From a virus, in IMG/VR virus record IMGVR_UViG_3300009068_000028, positions 27,680 through 91,679 of that record: 64,000 nt of DNA; one strand, written 5' to 3'. Below are positions 3,745 through 46,438 of this stretch, one piece after another. Both the position numbers and the translations under genes were made by a program. The notes beneath the pieces are model-generated. The model had not been told where the DNA came from. It saw only the letters and a list, made by a program, of their open reading frames with translations, and made no database searches. Within the stretch, counting starts at the first letter, position 1. Every line of letters begins with the position of its first letter.

Positions 3745-4957
3745 TTCAGAAGCAAAGCTTATCTCAGCAGTACTACAGGATAAGCAGGTACACGTATTAC
3801 TACAAGCTAACGTGGAAAACATTCTTCGTACTCACAATGACATATGGCAGTTTATTAGGAACTACTCTGAGCATAACGGTACTGTCCCACCTGTTACCCT
3901 TGTAGTAGACAAGTTCCGTGATTTTCATCCTGTTGATGGGGTTGGTGCAACTAAGCACCACCTAGAAGAACTACAGGCAGACTATCTTAATGACAGCCTA
4001 AAAGATATCTTACGCAACACTGCCGCAGATGTGCAGGGTGGCAAGGGTACAGAAGCCCTAGAGTCACTTATTCAAATGACTTCAGAGCTTAAGAAGAATA
4101 CTGCCTCAATCCGTGACATTGACGTTACAGACATTGACGATGCGATTGCGTATTATGAAAATGTGCAGAGGCAGAATGAGCTAGGACAGATTGGCATTAA
4201 GACTGGTCTTCCTGGATTTGATAACTATCTTCCTGCTGGCATTATGCCAGGACAACTTGGAGTCTTTCTTGCCTATCCAGGCATTGGCAAGTCGTGGCTA
4301 TCTCTTTACTTTGCTGTACAGGCTTGGAAGCAGGGCAAGTCACCAATGGTTGTAAGCCTTGAAATGAGCGAGACAGAGGTTCGTAACCGTGTCTACACAA
4401 TTATGGGCAATGGTCTTTGGTCGCACCGCAAGCTGTCTTCTGGCGAGGTAGAGCTAGATATGCTTAAGTCTTGGCACGAAAAGAATCTTCAGGGTAAGTC
4501 TGAGTTCCACATTATCTCTAATGATTCTGGTGGAGAGGTTACGCCATCAGTTATGCGAGGGAAGATCGACCAGTACAAGCCAGACTTTGTAATTGTAGAC
4601 TACCTACAACTAATGTCACCAAACCAGAAGTCAGACAATGAAACTGTTCGTATGAAGAACCTTTCTCGTGAACTTAAGCTAATGGCTATCTCTGAGGAAG
4701 TGCCTATCATTGCTATTTCATCTGCAACACCAGATGATGTTAATAAGCTAGACACTGTTCCTACACTGGGTCAAACCGCTTGGTCACGTCAAATTGCTTA
4801 CGATGCTGACTGGGTAATGGCTCTTGGTCGTGGTGCTAACTCAGATGTTATTGAGTGTGTATTCCGTAAGAACCGTAATGGATTTATGGGTGAGTTTATG
4901 GTTCAGGTTGACTTCGACAAGGGTCTATATAAATACAAAGATTTTGAAGATAACTAG
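3737..4957 (+). CDS. dnaB: DnaB-like replicative helicase
   Basis: Walker A 'AYPGIGKS', 'SLEMSE', 'IVDYLQLM', 'KNRNG'. Confidence 0.92.
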   Translation: MNDSEAKLISAVLQDKQVHVLLQANVENILRTHNDIWQFIRNYSEHNGTVPPVTLVVDKFRDFHPVDGVGATKHHLEELQADYLNDSLKDILRNTAADVQGGKGTEALESLIQMTSELKKNTASIRDIDVTDIDDAIAYYENVQRQNELGQIGIKTGLPGFDNYLPAGIMPGQLGVFLAYPGIGKSWLSLYFAVQAWKQGKSPMVVSLEMSETEVRNRVYTIMGNGLWSHRKLSSGEVELDMLKSWHEKNLQGKSEFHIISNDSGGEVTPSVMRGKIDQYKPDFVIVDYLQLMSPNQKSDNETVRMKNLSRELKLMAISEEVPIIAISSATPDDVNKLDTVPTLGQTAWSRQIAYDADWVMALGRGANSDVIECVFRKNRNGFMGEFMVQVDFDKGLYKYKDFEDN

Positions 4958-6186: not shown

Positions 6187-6837
6187 ATGAGTGCAATTAA
6201 GGGACTTAAAAATCTAAACGCCCTACTCGAAAAACCAAAGTACGAAGGTACAAAGGTTCGTTGGCTTAAGCTTGCTGACGGACAGTCTGCTACGATTCGT
6301 TTCGTAGAAGAGCTAGATGCAGATTCACCCTACTACGATGAAAGTCGTGGAGAGGCTTGTGTATTTGCAGAGCACACCAACCCAAAGGACTACAAGCGTA
6401 AGGCTGCTTGTACAGTCGATTCGGAAGGTCGCTGCTACGGCTGTGAAATGGCTCGTAAAGAGCCTAAGTCTGGCTGGAGAGCACGTAACCGCTTCTACTG
6501 CAACGTCCTCGTTGAAGACGGTCTTGAAGACCCCTACGTGGCTGTATGGTCACAGGGTATCTCAAAGCAGTCTGCTGTACCCACATTGATGGAATACTTT
6601 GACGACACCAAGGGTATTTCAAATGTTGTTTGGAAGATCAAGCGTAACGGTCAGGGAACTGAAACAAGTTACACGCTTCTTCCCAAGGGACCTGACACAG
6701 AGCCTTTTGACTGGTCAACCCACGAGTTCCACAACTTGGAAAACGTTCTTCGTGAGATTCCTTACGCTGAACAGGAAGCATTCTATTTCGGTTTCGATGC
6801 TCCATCCATTACCTCTGCTACTAACGCAGACTGGTAA
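6187..6837 (+). CDS. Single-stranded DNA-binding protein (gp32-like)
   Basis: His/Cys metal motif, 'WKIKRNGQGTETSY', position between primase and polymerase, strong RBS. Confidence 0.7.
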   Translation: MSAIKGLKNLNALLEKPKYEGTKVRWLKLADGQSATIRFVEELDADSPYYDESRGEACVFAEHTNPKDYKRKAACTVDSEGRCYGCEMARKEPKSGWRARNRFYCNVLVEDGLEDPYVAVWSQGISKQSAVPTLMEYFDDTKGISNVVWKIKRNGQGTETSYTLLPKGPDTEPFDWSTHEFHNLENVLREIPYAEQEAFYFGFDAPSITSATNADW

Positions 6838-6844
6838 TAAAGAC

Positions 6845-6873
6845 TGTGCTGGGCAAACACACTAAACTGCCCA
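6845..6873 (+). ncRNA. 3'-UTR H-type pseudoknot motif (copy 1 of 5)
   Basis: tgtg-CTGGGCA-aa-caca-ctAAACTGCCCA; P1 tgtg/caca, P2 tgggca/tgccca; covarying copies at 43.2-45.7 kb. Confidence 0.6.
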
Positions 6874-6905
6874 CCTAAACTTTTCATTTCTAACGTAAGG
6901 ACTCT

Positions 6906-9900
6906 ATGAGTTACGCTGGGCTTCATGTTCATACCCACTACTCGCTTTTCGATGGCATTGCTACCCCACAGGAATATGTAAATCGTGCAGTTGCACTGGG
7001 AATGCCAGCCATTGCTATCACAGACCACGGAAGTCTTTCAGGACACCGTGAGTTATACCGCTCTGCTAAAGAAGCTGGCATCAAGCCAATTCTTGGCATT
7101 GAAGGGTACATTACTAAAGACCGCCTAGACCACACAGATAAAAAAGACAAGAACGACCCACTTGATCTTAACTATAATCACCTTATTATTCTTGCAAAGA
7201 ATACCACAGGTCTAGAGAATTTAAATAAGCTTAACGAACTTGCCTGGACAGAAGGTTTCTACAAGAAGCCTCGTATTGACTGGCAGATTCTTGAAAAATA
7301 CAAGGAAGGTCTTATTGTTACCTCTGGCTGTTTGTCGGGGGTACTGGCTAAAGCAATTGAATCAGACAATCTAGCCTATGCTAAGGAACACATCAGGTGG
7401 TGTAAGGATATCTTTGGTGACGACTATTACATTGAGGTTATGCCACATAATCCTGCAGAAGTAAACAAGATGTTGCTTGAGCTTGCAGACGAGTTTGGCA
7501 TTACACCTGTAGTCACACCTGACTGCCATCACTCAGATAAGAGCCAGAAAGAAATTCAAGAACTTAAACTAATCCTTAACTCATACTCAAATAAAACTGT
7601 TGGAGATTCAACATACAACGGTACAAAGAAGTATGACAATCTCATGGACAAGCTCGACTACCTCTATGGTGAAGACCGTCAGATGTCATTTAATAAGTTT
7701 GACATTCATTTGTTGTCAGATGAAGAGATGCACGATGCCATGAAAGCTCAGGGTATTGACCGTGAGGATATGTATGAGGCAACTCTTGAGATTGTAAACA
7801 AGATTGAAGATTATGATATCCAAGACTACCGTGACCTACTGCCTGTTCAGTACCAGGACCCAGACGGAGAGCTCCTCAGCCTCGCTCTGGAGGGCTTAAA
7901 GGCTAAAGGCTTAGATCAGAACCAAGAATATATTGATCGTCTTAACGAGGAGCTGACGATCATTAAGGACAAGAACTTTGGTCCTTACTTTCTAGTTGTA
8001 CGCTCTATGATTGCTTGGGCTAAGAAGGAAGGCATTATGGTTGGACCAGGACGTGGTTCGTCTGCTGGTTCGCTACTCTGCTATTCTCTTGGCATTACAG
8101 ATATTGACCCTATCATACACGGTCTACTGTTCTTTCGATTTATTAATCCAGAACGTAATGACTTTCCAGATATTGATACAGATATTCAAGACACACGACG
8201 TGAAGAGGTAAAGGATTACCTTGTACGTCAGTATCGTCACGTTGCCTCTATTGCTACATTCTTGCAGTTTAAGGATAAAGGTGTCGTGCGAGACATTGCT
8301 CGTGTGCTAAAGGTTCCACTTCCTGACGTTAATAAAGTTATGAAGCTTGTGGATACTTGGGAAGACTACTGCTCTTCATCATCTACAGCAGAGTTTCGTG
8401 AGAAATATCCAGAGATTGAACTATATGGAGAGCAACTGCGTGGTCGTATCCGTGGTACTGGTATCCACGCTGCTGGTGTTGTTACATCCAAGGAGCCTAT
8501 CTTTAAGTTTGCTCCAATGGAGACTCGTACAGCACCAGGAACCAAGGAGCGTATTCCTGTTGTTGCAGTAGATATGACAGAAGCAGAGCGTATTGGTCTT
8601 ATTAAAATTGATGCTCTTGGTCTCAAGACACTATCGGTTTTGCAGGACACGCTTGCAATCATTAAAGACCGTGGTGGCAAAAACATCGATCTTCTTAAGA
8701 TTGATATGGATGATAAGAATGTCTACGCCATGCTCTCTGACGGATTCACTAAGGGTGTCTTTCAGTGTGAAGCCACACCATACACCAACTTGCTAGTTAA
8801 GATGGGTGTCAAGAACTTTGCAGAGCTTGCTGCCTCTAACGCTCTTGTCCGTCCAGGTGCTATGAACACTATTGGTAAAGACTACATTGCTCGTAAGCAC
8901 GGTAAGCAAAAAATTACCTATCTTCACAGTGTTATGAAAGAGTTTACAGACGACACCTATGGATGCGTTCTGTACCAAGAACAGGTCATGCTTGCTTGTA
9001 CAAATCTTGGCGGTATGACAATGGCAGAGGCTGACAAGGTTCGTAAGATTATTGGTAAAAAGAAAGATGCTCGTGAGTTTGATGCCTATAAGGATCAGTT
9101 TGTAAGAGGAGCCTCTAGATATGTAACTACATTCCAAGCAGAAGAACTCTGGCATGATTTTGAGGCACACGCTGGTTACTCCTTTAACAAGTCTCACGCC
9201 GTTGCATACTCAACACTTTCTTACTGGACTGCGTGGCTAAAGTATCACTACCCAATTGAGTTTATGTTTGCACTTCTCAAGAACGAGAAGGACAAGGATG
9301 CTCGTACAGAGTACCTTATTGAAGCAAAGCGTATGGGCATTCCAATTAAGTTGCCACACGTCAACGATTCAGATGCTGACTTTAAGATTGAGGGCAAGGG
9401 TATTCGATTTGGTCTTAGTGGTATCAAGTTTATTAGTGATAACATTGCAGAAAAGTATATTGCTGCTCGTCCCTTCAACTCTTACAAAGAGCTAGAGGAG
9501 TTCTCGTTTGGCAAGGGCAACGGAGTTAACTCTCGTGCATTGTCAGCACTTAGACTAATCGGTGCTGCCACCTTCCCTGACCAGCCTCGCAATGATGAAG
9601 AGATTCGGGAGAACCTTTACGAGTATTTGAACCTGCCAGAATTTAATACAGCAATTCCACAGCACTATCACGCATTTATTAATGATGTTGAAGAGTATGA
9701 GGAAAAGGGTTCATTTATTATCATGGGCATTGTCAAGGGGATTAAGCGAGGCAAGGGCTGGTCACGAGTAGAGGTGCTAGATAAGACAGGTGCTATCGGT
9801 ATCTTTGATGAAGAGCAGTCCAAGGTTGAGGCAGGACGTACCTACCTTATCCTTGCAAGTGATAATCGTATCGTTACTGCAATCCCTGCAGATGAAATTA

Positions 9901-10184
9901 AGGGTAACGATTCAGGTCTTGTAAAGATTCTTAACTACCGTATGCTACCATATACAGACGACCAGTTAATGGTTGTGTCATTTAGACCACGCATTACTAA
10001 GGCTGGTAAAAAGATGGCATCAATGGTAGTCGCAGACTCGTCACGAGAACTGCACTCAATCACAATCTTCCCAACTTCATTTCCTAAAGCATATATGAAG
10101 ATTAAGGAAGGTAATGTATATAAATTCTCTTTTGGTAAAACAAAAGACGGAACAACAATAATGGAGGATGTATTCGATGTTTGA
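6906..10184 (+). CDS. dnaE: DNA polymerase III alpha subunit
   Basis: PHP 'HVHTHYS...TDHG', 'GPGRGSSAGS', 'PDIDTD', 'YSFNKSHA'; 1092 aa. Confidence 0.97.
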   Translation: MSYAGLHVHTHYSLFDGIATPQEYVNRAVALGMPAIAITDHGSLSGHRELYRSAKEAGIKPILGIEGYITKDRLDHTDKKDKNDPLDLNYNHLIILAKNTTGLENLNKLNELAWTEGFYKKPRIDWQILEKYKEGLIVTSGCLSGVLAKAIESDNLAYAKEHIRWCKDIFGDDYYIEVMPHNPAEVNKMLLELADEFGITPVVTPDCHHSDKSQKEIQELKLILNSYSNKTVGDSTYNGTKKYDNLMDKLDYLYGEDRQMSFNKFDIHLLSDEEMHDAMKAQGIDREDMYEATLEIVNKIEDYDIQDYRDLLPVQYQDPDGELLSLALEGLKAKGLDQNQEYIDRLNEELTIIKDKNFGPYFLVVRSMIAWAKKEGIMVGPGRGSSAGSLLCYSLGITDIDPIIHGLLFFRFINPERNDFPDIDTDIQDTRREEVKDYLVRQYRHVASIATFLQFKDKGVVRDIARVLKVPLPDVNKVMKLVDTWEDYCSSSSTAEFREKYPEIELYGEQLRGRIRGTGIHAAGVVTSKEPIFKFAPMETRTAPGTKERIPVVAVDMTEAERIGLIKIDALGLKTLSVLQDTLAIIKDRGGKNIDLLKIDMDDKNVYAMLSDGFTKGVFQCEATPYTNLLVKMGVKNFAELAASNALVRPGAMNTIGKDYIARKHGKQKITYLHSVMKEFTDDTYGCVLYQEQVMLACTNLGGMTMAEADKVRKIIGKKKDAREFDAYKDQFVRGASRYVTTFQAEELWHDFEAHAGYSFNKSHAVAYSTLSYWTAWLKYHYPIEFMFALLKNEKDKDARTEYLIEAKRMGIPIKLPHVNDSDADFKIEGKGIRFGLSGIKFISDNIAEKYIAARPFNSYKELEEFSFGKGNGVNSRALSALRLIGAATFPDQPRNDEEIRENLYEYLNLPEFNTAIPQHYHAFINDVEEYEEKGSFIIMGIVKGIKRGKGWSRVEVLDKTGAIGIFDEEQSKVEAGRTYLILASDNRIVTAIPADEIKGNDSGLVKILNYRMLPYTDDQLMVVSFRPRITKAGKKMASMVVADSSRELHSITIFPTSFPKAYMKIKEGNVYKFSFGKTKDGTTIMEDVFDV

Positions 10185-43048: not shown

Positions 43049-43256
43049 TGGGCTACCTTTCTTTTTGGGTTACCTCTATTATATCGTTGACCACCGACAT
43101 CAAACTGGGTAAATTCGGGAGAATTCGTAATGAGTTCGTAATGATTCGATAATTACTGTTTGTTTATTATGTCAGCAGCCCGAGCTGCCTGTGGATAAGT
43201 CTGTGGAGATCCCCCAAAGGGGGAGGCAGTTTATACTGTTGCCCAGCAGTTACGGA

Positions 43257-44279
43257 TTATACTCCCAGCATTACGGAAGCGACTACACGAGCCAAGCGGT
43301 TCTTCTCTGCGTTGAGAGCAGGGTCAAGTCCACTAGCACCAGCGAGAATGTTCTCGTTGTTTCCGCCACGAGCGGTGCGATACCAGTCAAGGCGTTCCGT
43401 CAAGGCGTTGAGAGTACCCCAAGCCGTTCCAGTAATTGTGTTGTTGTATTGCCCAACATAAATGTCGTTGATAAGGTCAATCTTGTCGTTGTGCTTCTTG
43501 AAAGAACCTTTGGCATCTTTTTCTGGGGCAGGGTAAGCAAGAGAAACAATCTTGTCAAACTCTGCTTTAGTAACTTCAGTTTCAATCATAGCGTTAGCCA
43601 TAACAGAAAACTCGTCAAGGTAAGTCTGTGCCAAGCCAAGTGCTTCACGAGCAACCTGAACACGACCCTCTGCCGTCTGCGTGTGACGGATTTTGAACGA
43701 CTGCTTTACCTTACGGTTAGAACCAATACCGCCACCCAAAGCAAGGTTGAGAGTGTTAGCACACACAACACGGACAGGCGTGATACTTGCCATAATGGAG
43801 ATAGAGCCATCGTGAGATGTGTTGATAAGCAGGTAGTTCTCTACCTTGTCAGCACGACCATTGGGGTCAAGCACAATGTCGTTGTCAAGAGCGAGAGAGC
43901 CAAAAACTACACGACCACCCTTGATTGAACCAGCAGTCTCCCAACGACCACCACCGTCAAGCAGGTTGTCACCAAAGGTGAACAGGTCTTCGTTTTGGAG
44001 AGTGTGGTAGCGTTCACCCACAACGCCAAGCACATCATTCTGTGACTTGTCGAATGGGTTGGTACGACAAACAAAATAGTTTGTCTTGTCAGATACATAA
44101 CCTTCTGGGAACGAGAGTTCCTCAAGACGAACATTCCAGTTGTCAAGGTGAGCCAACTTGAGCATTTCGTCTGTGGTAACTTCGTCTTCAAAGACAGTCC
44201 CAAGTTTGTGCCAAGCAGGTTCTCGCAATGAAGCAAAAGCCACTTCGCCGTTAGCACCGATTTCTAATTCGTGAGCCAA
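43257..44279 (-). CDS. DUF932 / phage-plasmid-like protein
   Basis: 'REPAWHKLG', 'WETAGSIKGG', 'NTSHDGS', 'TPVRVVCANTL', 'IRHT'; TTG start after RBS gaaagga. Confidence 0.88.
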   Translation of the reverse strand: MAHELEIGANGEVAFASLREPAWHKLGTVFEDEVTTDEMLKLAHLDNWNVRLEELSFPEGYVSDKTNYFVCRTNPFDKSQNDVLGVVGERYHTLQNEDLFTFGDNLLDGGGRWETAGSIKGGRVVFGSLALDNDIVLDPNGRADKVENYLLINTSHDGSISIMASITPVRVVCANTLNLALGGGIGSNRKVKQSFKIRHTQTAEGRVQVAREALGLAQTYLDEFSVMANAMIETEVTKAEFDKIVSLAYPAPEKDAKGSFKKHNDKIDLINDIYVGQYNNTITGTAWGTLNALTERLDWYRTARGGNNENILAGASGLDPALNAEKNRLARVVASVMLGV

Positions 44280-44587
44280 TGTATTTCCTTTCGTTGTTGT
44301 TGATAATCTAATTATACACCTGACCACGGACATCTAACTATTCTGGGGAACATTCTGGGAGGTTCGTAACCTAAACGTAATAACTATGTTAGGACATGGC
44401 GGCTCGGGGATCCCAGCTGACAAAACAAAAATCCCCTGCTACCAGCAATCTATCCAGACGCTTCGCAGGGGACTTATGTATGGAAGTTTATTTCAATTAG
44501 ACGGCTTCTCATTCCACCGTAGCCCTAGTCTAACCTAGACGGTTATCATCTACACACCGACAAACTCACCCCATATTTCAGGGGAAG

Positions 44588-44659
44588 CGACCTCATAGGG
44601 ACTCGAACCCTAACCTCTACCTCGACAGGGTAGCGTGATAACCTTTTCACTATGAAGCC
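44588..44659 (-). tRNA. tRNA-Asp(GTC)
   Basis: Acceptor ggcttca/tgaggtc, anticodon arm ctacc-ctGTCga-ggtag, T arm taggg-TTCGAGT-cccta. Confidence 0.85.
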
Positions 44660-44718
44660 AATGTTTCTCTGTGTAGTTATAGATTGGGCAGTTTAGACTG
44701 TTACCCAGCAGTTGCTCG

Positions 44719-45177
44719 TTAGAGGAGTTCCATCACCGTGTTGTAGGTGCTGGCATTGACTTCCTCTTGGTTGGTCATTTTGAGAACTTTGAGGTTCTTT
44801 TTGAGCAAGTCCAACTTGGTGGTGTATTCACGACCATAGTGCTGACGGTCATTAGGGTTGGTGGGCTGTTCTGGTGCTTGGGGCAGAGCAAGCAAGTCAG
44901 TATTGACCTGAATGTTTACGCCATAACCACCATAACGGTTTCCAGCACTAACACGAACAAGAGCGTTGGTGTCATACTCGCCACCAATGTTGTCAGGGTT
45001 CTTGATTGCCTCAACAACAGCATTGAGAACCAACTCTTGGTGTGCCTTGTATGCCTGACGGTATGCTTCCATATCGGCAGGGTATGTAGCCATCTCTGCC
45101 TCAATCTTGGCAATAGTAGCCTCAACATCAGCAATCAGAGTAGCGGTTGGGATTTTCACGGAGAGTGAACGAGCCAT
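44719..45177 (-). CDS. Hypothetical protein
   Basis: 152 aa, RBS gaaagga, own promoter. Confidence 0.7.
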   Translation of the reverse strand: MARSLSVKIPTATLIADVEATIAKIEAEMATYPADMEAYRQAYKAHQELVLNAVVEAIKNPDNIGGEYDTNALVRVSAGNRYGGYGVNIQVNTDLLALPQAPEQPTNPNDRQHYGREYTTKLDLLKKNLKVLKMTNQEEVNASTYNTVMELL

Positions 45178-45294
45178 TGGTTTAGTCCTTTCGTTTGGCT
45201 TATATCTATATTATATCATTGGGGTATGACATATAACTATTGAGTTAGGTGGGCAGTTTGACTTGATACCCAGCAAGCAGACTAGGGTCTGACC

Positions 45295-45447
45295 TTAGTT
45301 GCTGGAAACCGTAGTCCAGCGAGGCTGTCCTGCGACATCAAGACGAACACGGAACGAACCGTTTGCGTTCTTGACAACTTCCTGAACGATACCAGAAACG
45401 CCAGACTTCTGCGTGGTGAACGACTGACCGATTTCGATTTGCGACAT
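45295..45447 (-). CDS. Small SH3/Tudor-like protein
   Basis: 50 aa 'MSQIEIGQSFTTQKSGVSGIVQEV...', preceded by TTGACA-17-TATAAT (45503-45531). Confidence 0.55.
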   Translation of the reverse strand: MSQIEIGQSFTTQKSGVSGIVQEVVKNANGSFRVRLDVAGQPRWTTVSSN

Positions 45448-45788
45448 TGTGTACCTTGCTTCCTTGTAGTGAGCCAACTGTTTTGTTTGCTTCGTTATTA
45501 CCATTATACAGGAAAGGAAAGAGTTTGTCAAGTCTTTTTCTCAACTTTTTTATTTTTTTTGTGGGGACTTCCGACTTCGTTTCCCTGCCTGTAATACAAG
45601 TATACCAACGACCACCGACATATAACTAATCGTTTCGGGGGATTTTTGTAACAGTTCGTAACCTGTTTGTCATAACATAGGCGGCTCGGGGATCCGCAGG
45701 GCATAGAGAAAGGACAGTTTATAAAGGACATGTCCAGGTCCTCGTCCAGTGCAGGGGAAAGGACAAACAATACCCTGCAGCTGGGAGC

Positions 45789-46438
45789 CTAACTCTCTTC
45801 GATTTCTCCTACATCGAATGACTGGACACAGAAATCTTCTACGTCTGTGTTGTAGCAATCAAGGTTGAGTTCCCCAACTTCGAAATGTTCAATGTCAAAG
45901 TCAGCAGGGACTAACATTGTTGCTTCAACAGTCAACGGAATCGTGACGGTAATCTCACGAAGGAGCGAGATACCAAGTACGTCAGCAACAGAATTCGCTA
46001 CTGTCTGAACGTCAATGTCCTCAGCAATTGCTTCCAAGAGAATCAATCGGATGTTCTCGTTTTCCTCGTTACGACGGATAGACATACCAAGATTATCTTG
46101 ATTGAGACCTGTAGCCTGTGCTTCCAAGTCTTTGATGTACTCATTCATTTTGCTAAGTACTGGGTGATTGTTTTCCATTAGTTGTCCTCTGCTTCTTGTG
46201 CGATACCGTTGAGTTCGTCAATTGTCTGTGTGAGTACCTGAAAGTCCTCTTCCGACAAAAGTAGTTGTGACATTGCGTGTGCCATAAGTCCTGTGATTGT
46301 CTGCCCGAAAATGTTGAGAGCAATCCGACGGTCTTCATCGGTTTCTGCGAACAGTACCATACCAGACGCAGTCTGTGTCATTACATCCTGCGAAACATCT
46401 TCGGCAACCTGCCGTAGTCCAAATGCTATGTCAATCAT
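45789..46438 (-). CDS. Two acidic hypothetical proteins (45789-46178, 46178-46438)
   Basis: Coupled ORFs behind a repeat promoter. Confidence 0.65.

Follow-up and report, generated by a model that had tools for sequence, protein, structure and literature searches.

The described RNAs closest in position to the element considered here are the stabilising hairpins that follow open reading frames (ORFs), namely the REP elements of Escherichia coli, the hairpins at RNase III sites in T7 and the terminator-like hairpins behind phage capsid genes. The element is a small H-type pseudoknot found five times in a 64,000-nucleotide stretch of viral DNA (the window), which comprises bases 27,680–91,679 of the 91,679-bp IMG/VR record IMGVR_UViG_3300009068_000028 and has a GC content of 39.7%. 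Like those hairpins, it folds on the sense strand immediately after the stop that ends a highly expressed cistron, and it is mostly intercistronic. Unlike them, it is no simple GC hairpin but a pseudoknot whose loop and linker nucleotides are conserved. It forms one sequence family across unrelated phages, and the role of barrier is one that we infer for it. The kind of element, a structure guarding an mRNA boundary, is therefore known. Its form, its spread across unrelated phages, and the rules governing its spacing from stop codons and tRNAs are new.

Four other systems resemble it in part. The 3'-end module of MALAT1 and MEN-beta consists of a triple helix followed by mascRNA, a tRNA-like RNA processed by RNase P. 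The likeness is that of a compact, possibly triplex-stabilised structure just upstream of an RNase P site, where cleavage would make a protected, non-terminated 3' end. However, the knot consensus contains neither a U-rich clamp or internal loop nor a 3' A tract, the tRNAs are genuine, and the setting is viral and prokaryotic. In addition, ~90% of the knots have no adjoining tRNA, and RNase P cleavage at knots is a prediction. In architecture, it resembles the minimal H-type knots of luteoviruses (beet western yellows virus, BWYV, type). In those, the first stem (S1) has 4–5 bp, L1 is very short and includes a conserved C, the junction is one nucleotide long, and an A-rich L3 lies beside the second stem (S2); they stand 5–6 nucleotides (nt) from the A-site codon and contain groove triples. 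The phage knot shares this arrangement of stems, loops and spacing, but has no slippery site or extended frame, has a longer S2 (5–6 bp), and occurs in DNA phages behind a stop codon. The preQ1-I riboswitch (RF00522) is similar in size, H-type topology and A-rich L3. However, its covariance model finds no match even at E≤10, and the knot lies 3' of ORFs rather than in a 5' leader, with several copies per genome. The knot also has an L2 of 1 nt without the conserved C, and its neighbours are DUF932, single-stranded DNA-binding protein (SSB), Hsp20 and capsid genes, with no queuosine genes among them. Finally, the type III antitoxin RNAs (ToxI, CptI and TenpI) are likewise small phage- or defence-associated pseudoknots, of ~35 nt and with an A-rich segment. 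Those are tandem direct repeats beside an endoribonuclease toxin gene, whereas the knots are single and dispersed behind unrelated ORFs, and no ToxN/AbiQ-type toxin family was found among the knot neighbours in the Pfam and PHROG annotation.

An earlier note on the window had listed five copies of the element, and all five are present:

6845–6873, plus strand: pseudoknot copy 1; P1 TGTG (6845–6848) with CACA (6858–6861), loop CTGGGCA (6849–6855), L3 CTAAAC (6862–6867), 3' arm of P2 TGCCCA (6868–6873); covariance model score 39.2 bits, E 4.7e-10
43224–43250, minus strand: pseudoknot copy 2; P1 ACTG/CAGT, P2 GGGCA/TGCCT with one G-U wobble; 37.5 bits
44685–44712, minus strand: pseudoknot copy 3; P1 ACTG/CAGT, P2 TGGGTA/TGCCCA with one U-G wobble; 38.9 bits
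45250–45277, minus strand: pseudoknot copy 4; P1 CTTG/CAAG, P2 TGGGTA/TGCCCA; 37.7 bits
45712–45741, minus strand: pseudoknot copy 5, a variant; P1 GGAC/GTCC, P2 GGACA/TGTCC (compensated, G-C to A-U), L3 of 9 nt; 23.6 bits, E 7e-5

In the window a 4-bp P1 encloses the loop C-T-G-G-(G/A)-(C/T)-A plus 1–2 bases, and is followed by NN-AAAC and then TG(C/T)C(C/T), which pairs back to the loop. Both helices had been said to covary among the five copies, and they do. The arms of P1 are TGTG/CACA, ACTG/CAGT (twice), CTTG/CAAG and GGAC/GTCC, and those of P2 are GGGCA/TGCCC, GGGCA/TGCCT (one G-U), GGGTA/TGCCC (twice, with U-G) and the compensated GGACA/TGTCC. A strict form of the pattern matches the window four times, against 0.00 expected from 100 shuffles; a relaxed form matches five times, exactly at the five sites, against 0.16 expected from shuffles. 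No sixth copy was found across the whole 91,679-bp genome. The copies are single units spaced 0.4–1.5 kb apart, each behind a different ORF.

A wider search of IMG/VR used the pattern CTGGGYA-N5-10-AAACTGCC, with the four bases before CTGG left free, and yielded at least 120 loci. Although P1 is not part of the pattern, a P1 of at least 4 bp is present in 77 of the 123 first-scan matches listed; most of the others have 3 bp, and nearly all of the stems are different. The family motif is P1, C-U-GGGYA, N, P1', NN-AAAC, UGCCCA, an H-type pseudoknot of ~31 nt. It is composed of an S1 (P1) of 4–5 bp, an L1 that is a C, an S2 (P2) of UGGGCA:UGCCCA or a compensated variant, a 1-nt junction, and an L3 of ~6 nt ending in AAAC. 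In an alignment of 103 instances (A1), 94% of the cells assigned to pairs in P1 and P2 are paired, versus 33–38% with the 3' partners shifted (33–40% when alignment A2, below, is included). Both inner pairs of P1 are paired in every instance, with 45 and 27 double substitutions in A1 (51 and 27 for the family overall). Double changes occur in eight of the ten helix pairs, and a second, model-made alignment (A2) contains changes on both sides in four of the six P2 pairs. A covariance model built from P1 alone (R1) recovered extra copies in the same loci that lie outside the search pattern and carry compensatory changes in P2.

The compensated classes of P2 are GAGCA/UGCUC (many examples, with GAGYA generally), GGACA/UGUCC (window copy 5 and loci L016 and L081), GGCCA/UGGCC, CGGCA/UGCCG and GGGUA/UACCC. 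The doubly changed combination GAGYA...UGCUC is abundant in the IMG/VR scan, and among the matches listed 74% have a P1 of at least 4 bp and 39% a stop codon at −12/−13. The singly changed combination GAGYA...UGCCC, which would contain an A-C mismatch, is random-like, with corresponding values of 17% and 12%. The earlier note had made its case depend on covariation in a wider alignment; covariation is seen in both helices across more than 250 independent viral instances, and the fold proposed there, an H-type pseudoknot of the sense-strand RNA, is upheld by every structural test. U-G and G-U wobbles are frequent in P2 on the sense strand. Since these would be A-C mismatches on the other strand, it is the sense transcript that folds, and not duplex DNA or an antisense RNA. 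A DNA-level palindrome or protein operator is ruled out by the same wobbles together with the free covariation of P1.

The element thus represents a real, non-random RNA family, one that is large, covaries strongly, is restricted to phages and lies outside Rfam. Rfam 15 gives no hit at the gathering score for the window or for 16 other carrier loci, and none at E≤10 for two small regions, which agrees with the earlier note's failure to assign a known family. The Rfam output otherwise consists of tRNAs, one Glutamine-II riboswitch elsewhere, and noise. This riboswitch aptamer (45.4 bits, gathering score 33) is located at L002:7880–7936 (+), in a viral contig that also bears the pseudoknot. No description of the motif was found in the full-text literature, including by the sequence word AAACUGCC. 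A catalogue of ~10,000 candidate IMG/VR RNAs does not discuss it in its text, tables aside (PMC10690425).

Several hundred or more IMG/VR viral contigs contain the motif, and the GC content of the carrier loci ranges from 32 to 67%. Complete carrier genomes have 1–7 copies, usually 3–5 clustered within ~3 kb, as in the window. When 596 Gb of bacterial and archaeal contigs were scanned with the same pattern, a P1 of at least 4 bp was present in only 12 of 122 matches, versus 77 of 123 viral ones. Because the bacterial and archaeal pattern matches mostly lack P1, the element is essentially confined to viral DNA, and the bacterial matches look like chance. The carriers are diverse. The window phage is a distant relative of the Stanwilliamsviridae phages of Streptomyces, as judged by 55% identity in DnaE, another carrier has a capsid protein 75% identical to that of Streptomyces phage LuckySocke, and a third groups with Bacillus- and Geobacillus-type phages. 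A phage-encoded partner was looked for among three complete carriers with 40, 61 and 36% GC (G000, G003 comprising L491–L500, and G005 comprising L501–L509), which share only a DnaE-type polymerase by blastp. DUF932 was considered for this role and rejected; it is absent from three complete carrier genomes and present in Streptomyces phages that have no knot. With no apparent phage-encoded partner, the knot must act alone or with universal host machinery.

Some positions are more constrained than pairing would demand. C8 and U9 before P2, the A14-U30 pair abutting P1, the AAAC of L3 and the closing pair of P1 are invariant or nearly so. The closing pair is always G-C or C-G, and the pair next to it is A-U or U-A in 98 of the 103 instances (A1/A2 columns 6–7 with 17–18; 30–31 in A2), a preference that goes beyond simple pairing. 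L2 consists of one nucleotide in 101 of 111 instances and L3 is mostly 5–7 nt long. A variant knot at L006:9987–10027 (+) has a 9-nt L2 (CCATACTCA) in place of the single junction nucleotide; the junction tolerates an extra element.

The retention of C8, U9, A14-U30 and AAAC across 32–67% GC could indicate a binding site, either an aptamer or an operator, for a conserved host factor or small ligand. The invariant nucleotides in the loop and at the junction would make up a pocket like that of H-type knots of the preQ1-I type, and occupancy would regulate the neighbouring genes. In size and topology the knot equals the smallest riboswitch aptamers. However, several copies per genome stand behind unrelated genes, the element is located 3' of ORFs with no expression platform, no Rfam riboswitch model matches, and the unrelated phages that carry it share no protein or pathway. 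Furthermore, an L2 of one variable nucleotide cannot carry a conserved recognition base. On balance a binding site of this type seems improbable.

The position of the knot relative to genes is as regular as its structure. That the copies in the window lie on the sense strand after stop codons, as had been noted, is correct, the distances being 4–7, 6, 6, 17 and 47 nt (behind ssb, DUF932, and ORFs of 152, 50 and 129 amino acids (aa), respectively). In the wider family, the stop codon of an ORF of at least 50 aa starts 11–16 nt before CTGG in about half of 130 first-scan instances, with a sharp peak at 12–13. The spacer between the stop and P1 is 4–7 nt in 56 of 81 cases with a peak at 5–6 nt, and is shorter (2–3 nt) in two of the 81. 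The strong stop context TAAT (UAAU) is enriched, and tandem stops are common. Flanking genes are co-oriented with the knot in 82–87% of cases. A co-oriented ORF starts within 60 nt in 75 of the 130 copies, and the next start codon lies at widely varying distances, mostly 0–160 nt. Among 90 non-redundant upstream proteins the commonest family is DUF932/phrog_1221 (13), in addition to SSB-type proteins including Gp2.5-like ones (~6–8), Hsp20 (5) and major head proteins (2–4). Typically, then, the upstream genes encode stoichiometric or abundant products.

A spacer of 5–6 nt corresponds to the mRNA entrance of a ribosome with the stop codon in its A site, which places the knot as near as possible without its being unwound. 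Stimulatory pseudoknots, too, classically stand this far from an A-site codon, and the architecture is like that of the luteovirus frameshift knots. These features could point to an element directed at the ribosome itself. A knot at the mRNA entrance might block forward sliding or re-initiation by post-termination ribosomes, or tune termination, and so uncouple a low-copy downstream gene such as dnaE from a heavily translated upstream gene such as ssb. The mostly intercistronic location, with a same-strand gene 20–60 nt downstream, would suit such a role. Nevertheless, ~40% of copies lie 10–145 nt from a stop or have no upstream ORF, the tight link to tRNAs described below has no place in the model, and copies in the window also appear to stand at the ends of transcription units. 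We regard action on the ribosome as distinctly unlikely.

The same spacing and topology fit a recoding signal for programmed −1 frameshifting or stop-codon read-through, as in luteovirus and retrovirus pseudoknots, where an H-type knot lies 5–9 nt downstream of the recoded codon; the phage knots peak at 5–6 nt from the stop. However, the stop occurs at −12 or −13 about equally often, so that there is no fixed frame, and both tandem stops and the strong UAAU context occur often. Recoding was rejected as a candidate: a slippery heptamer is present in two of 117 tight-stop cases, and the −1 and +1 frames close at a median of 8–9 codons. Its probability is close to nil.

In cultured Streptomyces phages, a GC-rich hairpin is located 6–16 nt past the stop at all three gene ends available for comparison, where carriers have the knot:

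LuckySocke: hairpin behind the capsid gene
Paradiddles and BillNye: hairpin behind ssb
Karimac: hairpin behind the DUF932/DUF945 gene

Judging from these sequences, the knot appears to substitute for the ordinary post-ORF hairpins of related phages. One of the hairpins is followed by a U run and they are terminator-like, which raises the possibility that the knot attenuates or terminates transcription, with P2 dislodging or pausing RNA polymerase as it forms behind the enzyme, and less read-through downstream as the outcome. Knots at cassette ends in the window would be in keeping with this. Yet there is no U tract after P2, where T makes up 28–41% of the next positions, a consensus terminator scan flags none of the five window copies, and most copies have a co-oriented gene within 20–60 nt that lacks a promoter of its own. 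Attenuation in general is highly improbable on this evidence, and a canonical Rho-independent terminator is ruled out by the missing U tract.

The RNA that follows P2 is instead pyrimidine-rich, with 4–11% G over six positions in 252 instances (e.g. window 6873–6877 and 45250–45246). A same-strand tRNA starts 1–12 nt after P2 in 23 of 259 knots, versus ~0.1 expected, in at least nine independent contexts (the tRNAs being for Asp, Asn, Arg, Leu, Tyr, Gly, Ser and Ala); only two tRNAs are close upstream of a knot in the same set. Examples of the resulting unit, consisting of an ORF stop, ~5 nt, the pseudoknot, 1–12 nt and a tRNA, are found at L062:7155–7254, L331:7863–7969, L025:5157–5262, L068:534–629 and L298:6566–6665. 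Twelve of the 23 are tRNA-Asp cases in relatives of the window phage, with the order 152-aa gene, knot, tRNA-Asp and DUF932 gene. In the window one copy had been placed just ahead of tRNA-Asp, and indeed copy 3 ends 25 nt before that gene, a looser case of the same arrangement. A 6.7-kb array of 17 tRNA genes at L025:211–6673 (−) contains one pseudoknot, 8 nt before tRNA-Ala. The same locus has a tRNA with a CTA anticodon at 3816–3891, which is amber suppressor-like and is called tRNA-Pyl by ARAGORN.

The association with tRNAs might mean that the knot is itself a processing signal, in which the coaxial P1–P2 helix and the pyrimidine-rich tail, sometimes ACCA, mimic a tRNA acceptor arm. RNase P or the CCA-adding enzyme would then cut or bind it, so that it would punctuate polycistronic phage RNAs as tRNAs do. 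Knots adjoin tRNA genes and also occur inside tRNA arrays, the helix of 10–11 bp is near minihelix length, and the tRNA 3'-end-like CACCA is the commonest 5-mer after P2 (21 of 252, ~8%). However, an ACCA tail is present in only ~8%, and the frequency of CC is that expected from the single positions. ARAGORN and the Rfam tRNA models match genuine tRNAs only. Were the cut made on the 5' side of P2, the knot would be lost, and with it the protection of the upstream message. Mimicry of this kind is judged very unlikely.

The reading that we favour, tentatively and at slightly less than even chances, is that the knot is a cis-acting cap at the 3' boundary of the upstream cistron. It would form the beginning of the untranslated RNA that follows the ORF and, standing just outside the terminating ribosome, would stay folded. 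The transcript would then be cut downstream, either by RNase P where a tRNA adjoins or by a different endonuclease acting in the G-poor linker. Exonucleases working 3' to 5' would trim back to the knot and stall, with the result that the upstream message (for SSB, capsid, Hsp20 or DUF932) outlives the downstream RNA. Where a tRNA adjoins, an RNase P cut would leave a tail of at most 7 nt in most cases. A tail of this length is too short for PNPase, RNase II or RNase R to engage. By analogy with BWYV, the invariant C of L1 and the AAAC of L3 would form major- and minor-groove triples that make the small knot mechanically stable. The structure, conservation, positional rules and restriction to phages are observed directly; the block to nucleases, the formation of ends and the tertiary contacts are inferred. 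Of the functions suggested in the earlier note, a nuclease-blocking element and a processing signal fit best, given the position outside the terminating ribosome, the substitution for hairpins and the juxtaposition with tRNA 5' ends; the third, binding of a ligand or protein, is less likely.

Several observations count against a 3'-boundary cap. The ~40% of copies without tight stop spacing (10–145 nt away, or with no upstream ORF) have been mentioned. In more than half of the instances the next gene follows after 20–60 nt, and neither a terminator nor a processing site is visible between. Nested energy folding of the knot gives no exceptional stability (z-scores −1.5 to +0.4), although a nested model is uninformative for a pseudoknot. 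The strong conservation of C8, U9, A14-U30 and AAAC is not obviously needed by a plain barrier, and could mean that there is a specific partner. Lastly, a scan of nine named or deposited phage genomes with R1 found no motif and only one weak match, so that no laboratory system is known. Absence from these nine genomes is probably why the motif has been overlooked so far.

A broader version of the cap idea is possible but rather unlikely. The pseudoknot could be a universal form of RNA punctuation in phages, which, with an adjoining tRNA or as an acceptor-arm mimic, directs RNase P or other tRNA-processing enzymes to cut polycistronic RNA behind the stop and seals the new 3' end. If so, prokaryotic viruses would have their own counterpart of the MALAT1 triple-helix/mascRNA mechanism and of the punctuation by tRNAs seen in mitochondria. 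To our knowledge, terminator-independent making of stable mRNA ends by such punctuation is not known in bacteria or phages.

If the knot does act as a 3'-boundary cap, it would rank with the most widespread structured RNAs in tailed phages, one that was missed because the cultured phages tested do not have it. Phages would then set the relative output of neighbouring genes (SSB against polymerase, or capsid against its neighbours) by means of a portable 31-nt module and not by terminators. Phage tRNA genes would also be tied to the formation of mRNA ends, which would give phages one more reason to have such genes. Being small, independent of host GC content and apparently in no need of a phage protein, the element is a candidate for use in synthetic biology as a plug-in stabiliser or insulator of mRNA. 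It also lends itself well to structural study of minimal knots with high mechanical strength. Through the positional rules (a stop plus 5–6 nt, and a tRNA at +1 to +12) the hypothesis can be tested directly.

The genes around the five copies in the window are as follows:

6187–6840, plus strand: ssb, with a double stop codon, upstream of copy 1; single-strand DNA-binding protein of phrog_9721 (E 1.8e-43)
6906–10184, plus strand: dnaE (DNA polymerase III alpha), downstream of copy 1; tblastn 55.9% identity over 100% of its length to the DnaE of Streptomyces phages
43257–44333, minus strand: DUF932 gene, 358 aa, upstream of copy 2; PF06067 (E 7.7e-49) and phrog_1221 (E 3.9e-98)
44587–44659, minus strand: tRNA-Asp (GTC), 25 nt downstream of copy 3; ARAGORN, and Rfam tRNA model at 62.4 bits
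44719–45177, minus strand: 152-aa ORF, upstream of copy 3; no Pfam or PHROG match
45295–45447, minus strand: 50-aa ORF, upstream of copy 4; consensus promoter TTGACA-N17-TATAAT at 45531–45503
45789–46178, minus strand: 129-aa ORF, upstream of copy 5; no family match in Pfam or PHROG

The placement of one copy between ssb and dnaE is confirmed by the phrog_9721 and tblastn assignments. This is copy 1, which lies 4–7 nt 3' of the TAATAA stops of ssb and is followed 33 nt downstream by the dnaE start codon. Copy 2 begins 6 nt past the TAA that ends the DUF932 gene; after it come a hairpin, CCCCC-TTT-GGGGG, and a perfect DnaA box (TTATCCACA). Copy 3 also begins 6 nt past a TAA, that of the 152-aa ORF, homologues of which flank pseudoknots in IMG/VR loci L039, L045, L104 and L107. 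Copy 4 begins 17 nt past the TAA (45297–45295) of the 50-aa ORF, and the next promoter-like region is ~15 nt downstream. Copy 5, the lowest-scoring copy in the window, begins 47 nt past the TAG of the 129-aa ORF. A nested two-helix fold of −10.5 kcal/mol at 45704–45750 (−) competes with its pseudoknot, because GGAC and GTCC each occur twice there.

In the early region of the window, four promoter-ORF cassettes end in a knot and the remaining cassettes end in hairpins. The promoter of the 50-aa ORF (45531–45503, −) is the best sigma-70 match of this 14-kb region, and the ORF has an AAGGAAG ribosome-binding site. Ahead of the promoters of one cassette after another, at ~45700–45640, ~44415–44350 and ~43170–43110 (−), stand repeated intergenic blocks made up of GATCCCCGAGCCGCC and then several TTACGAAC-like repeats.

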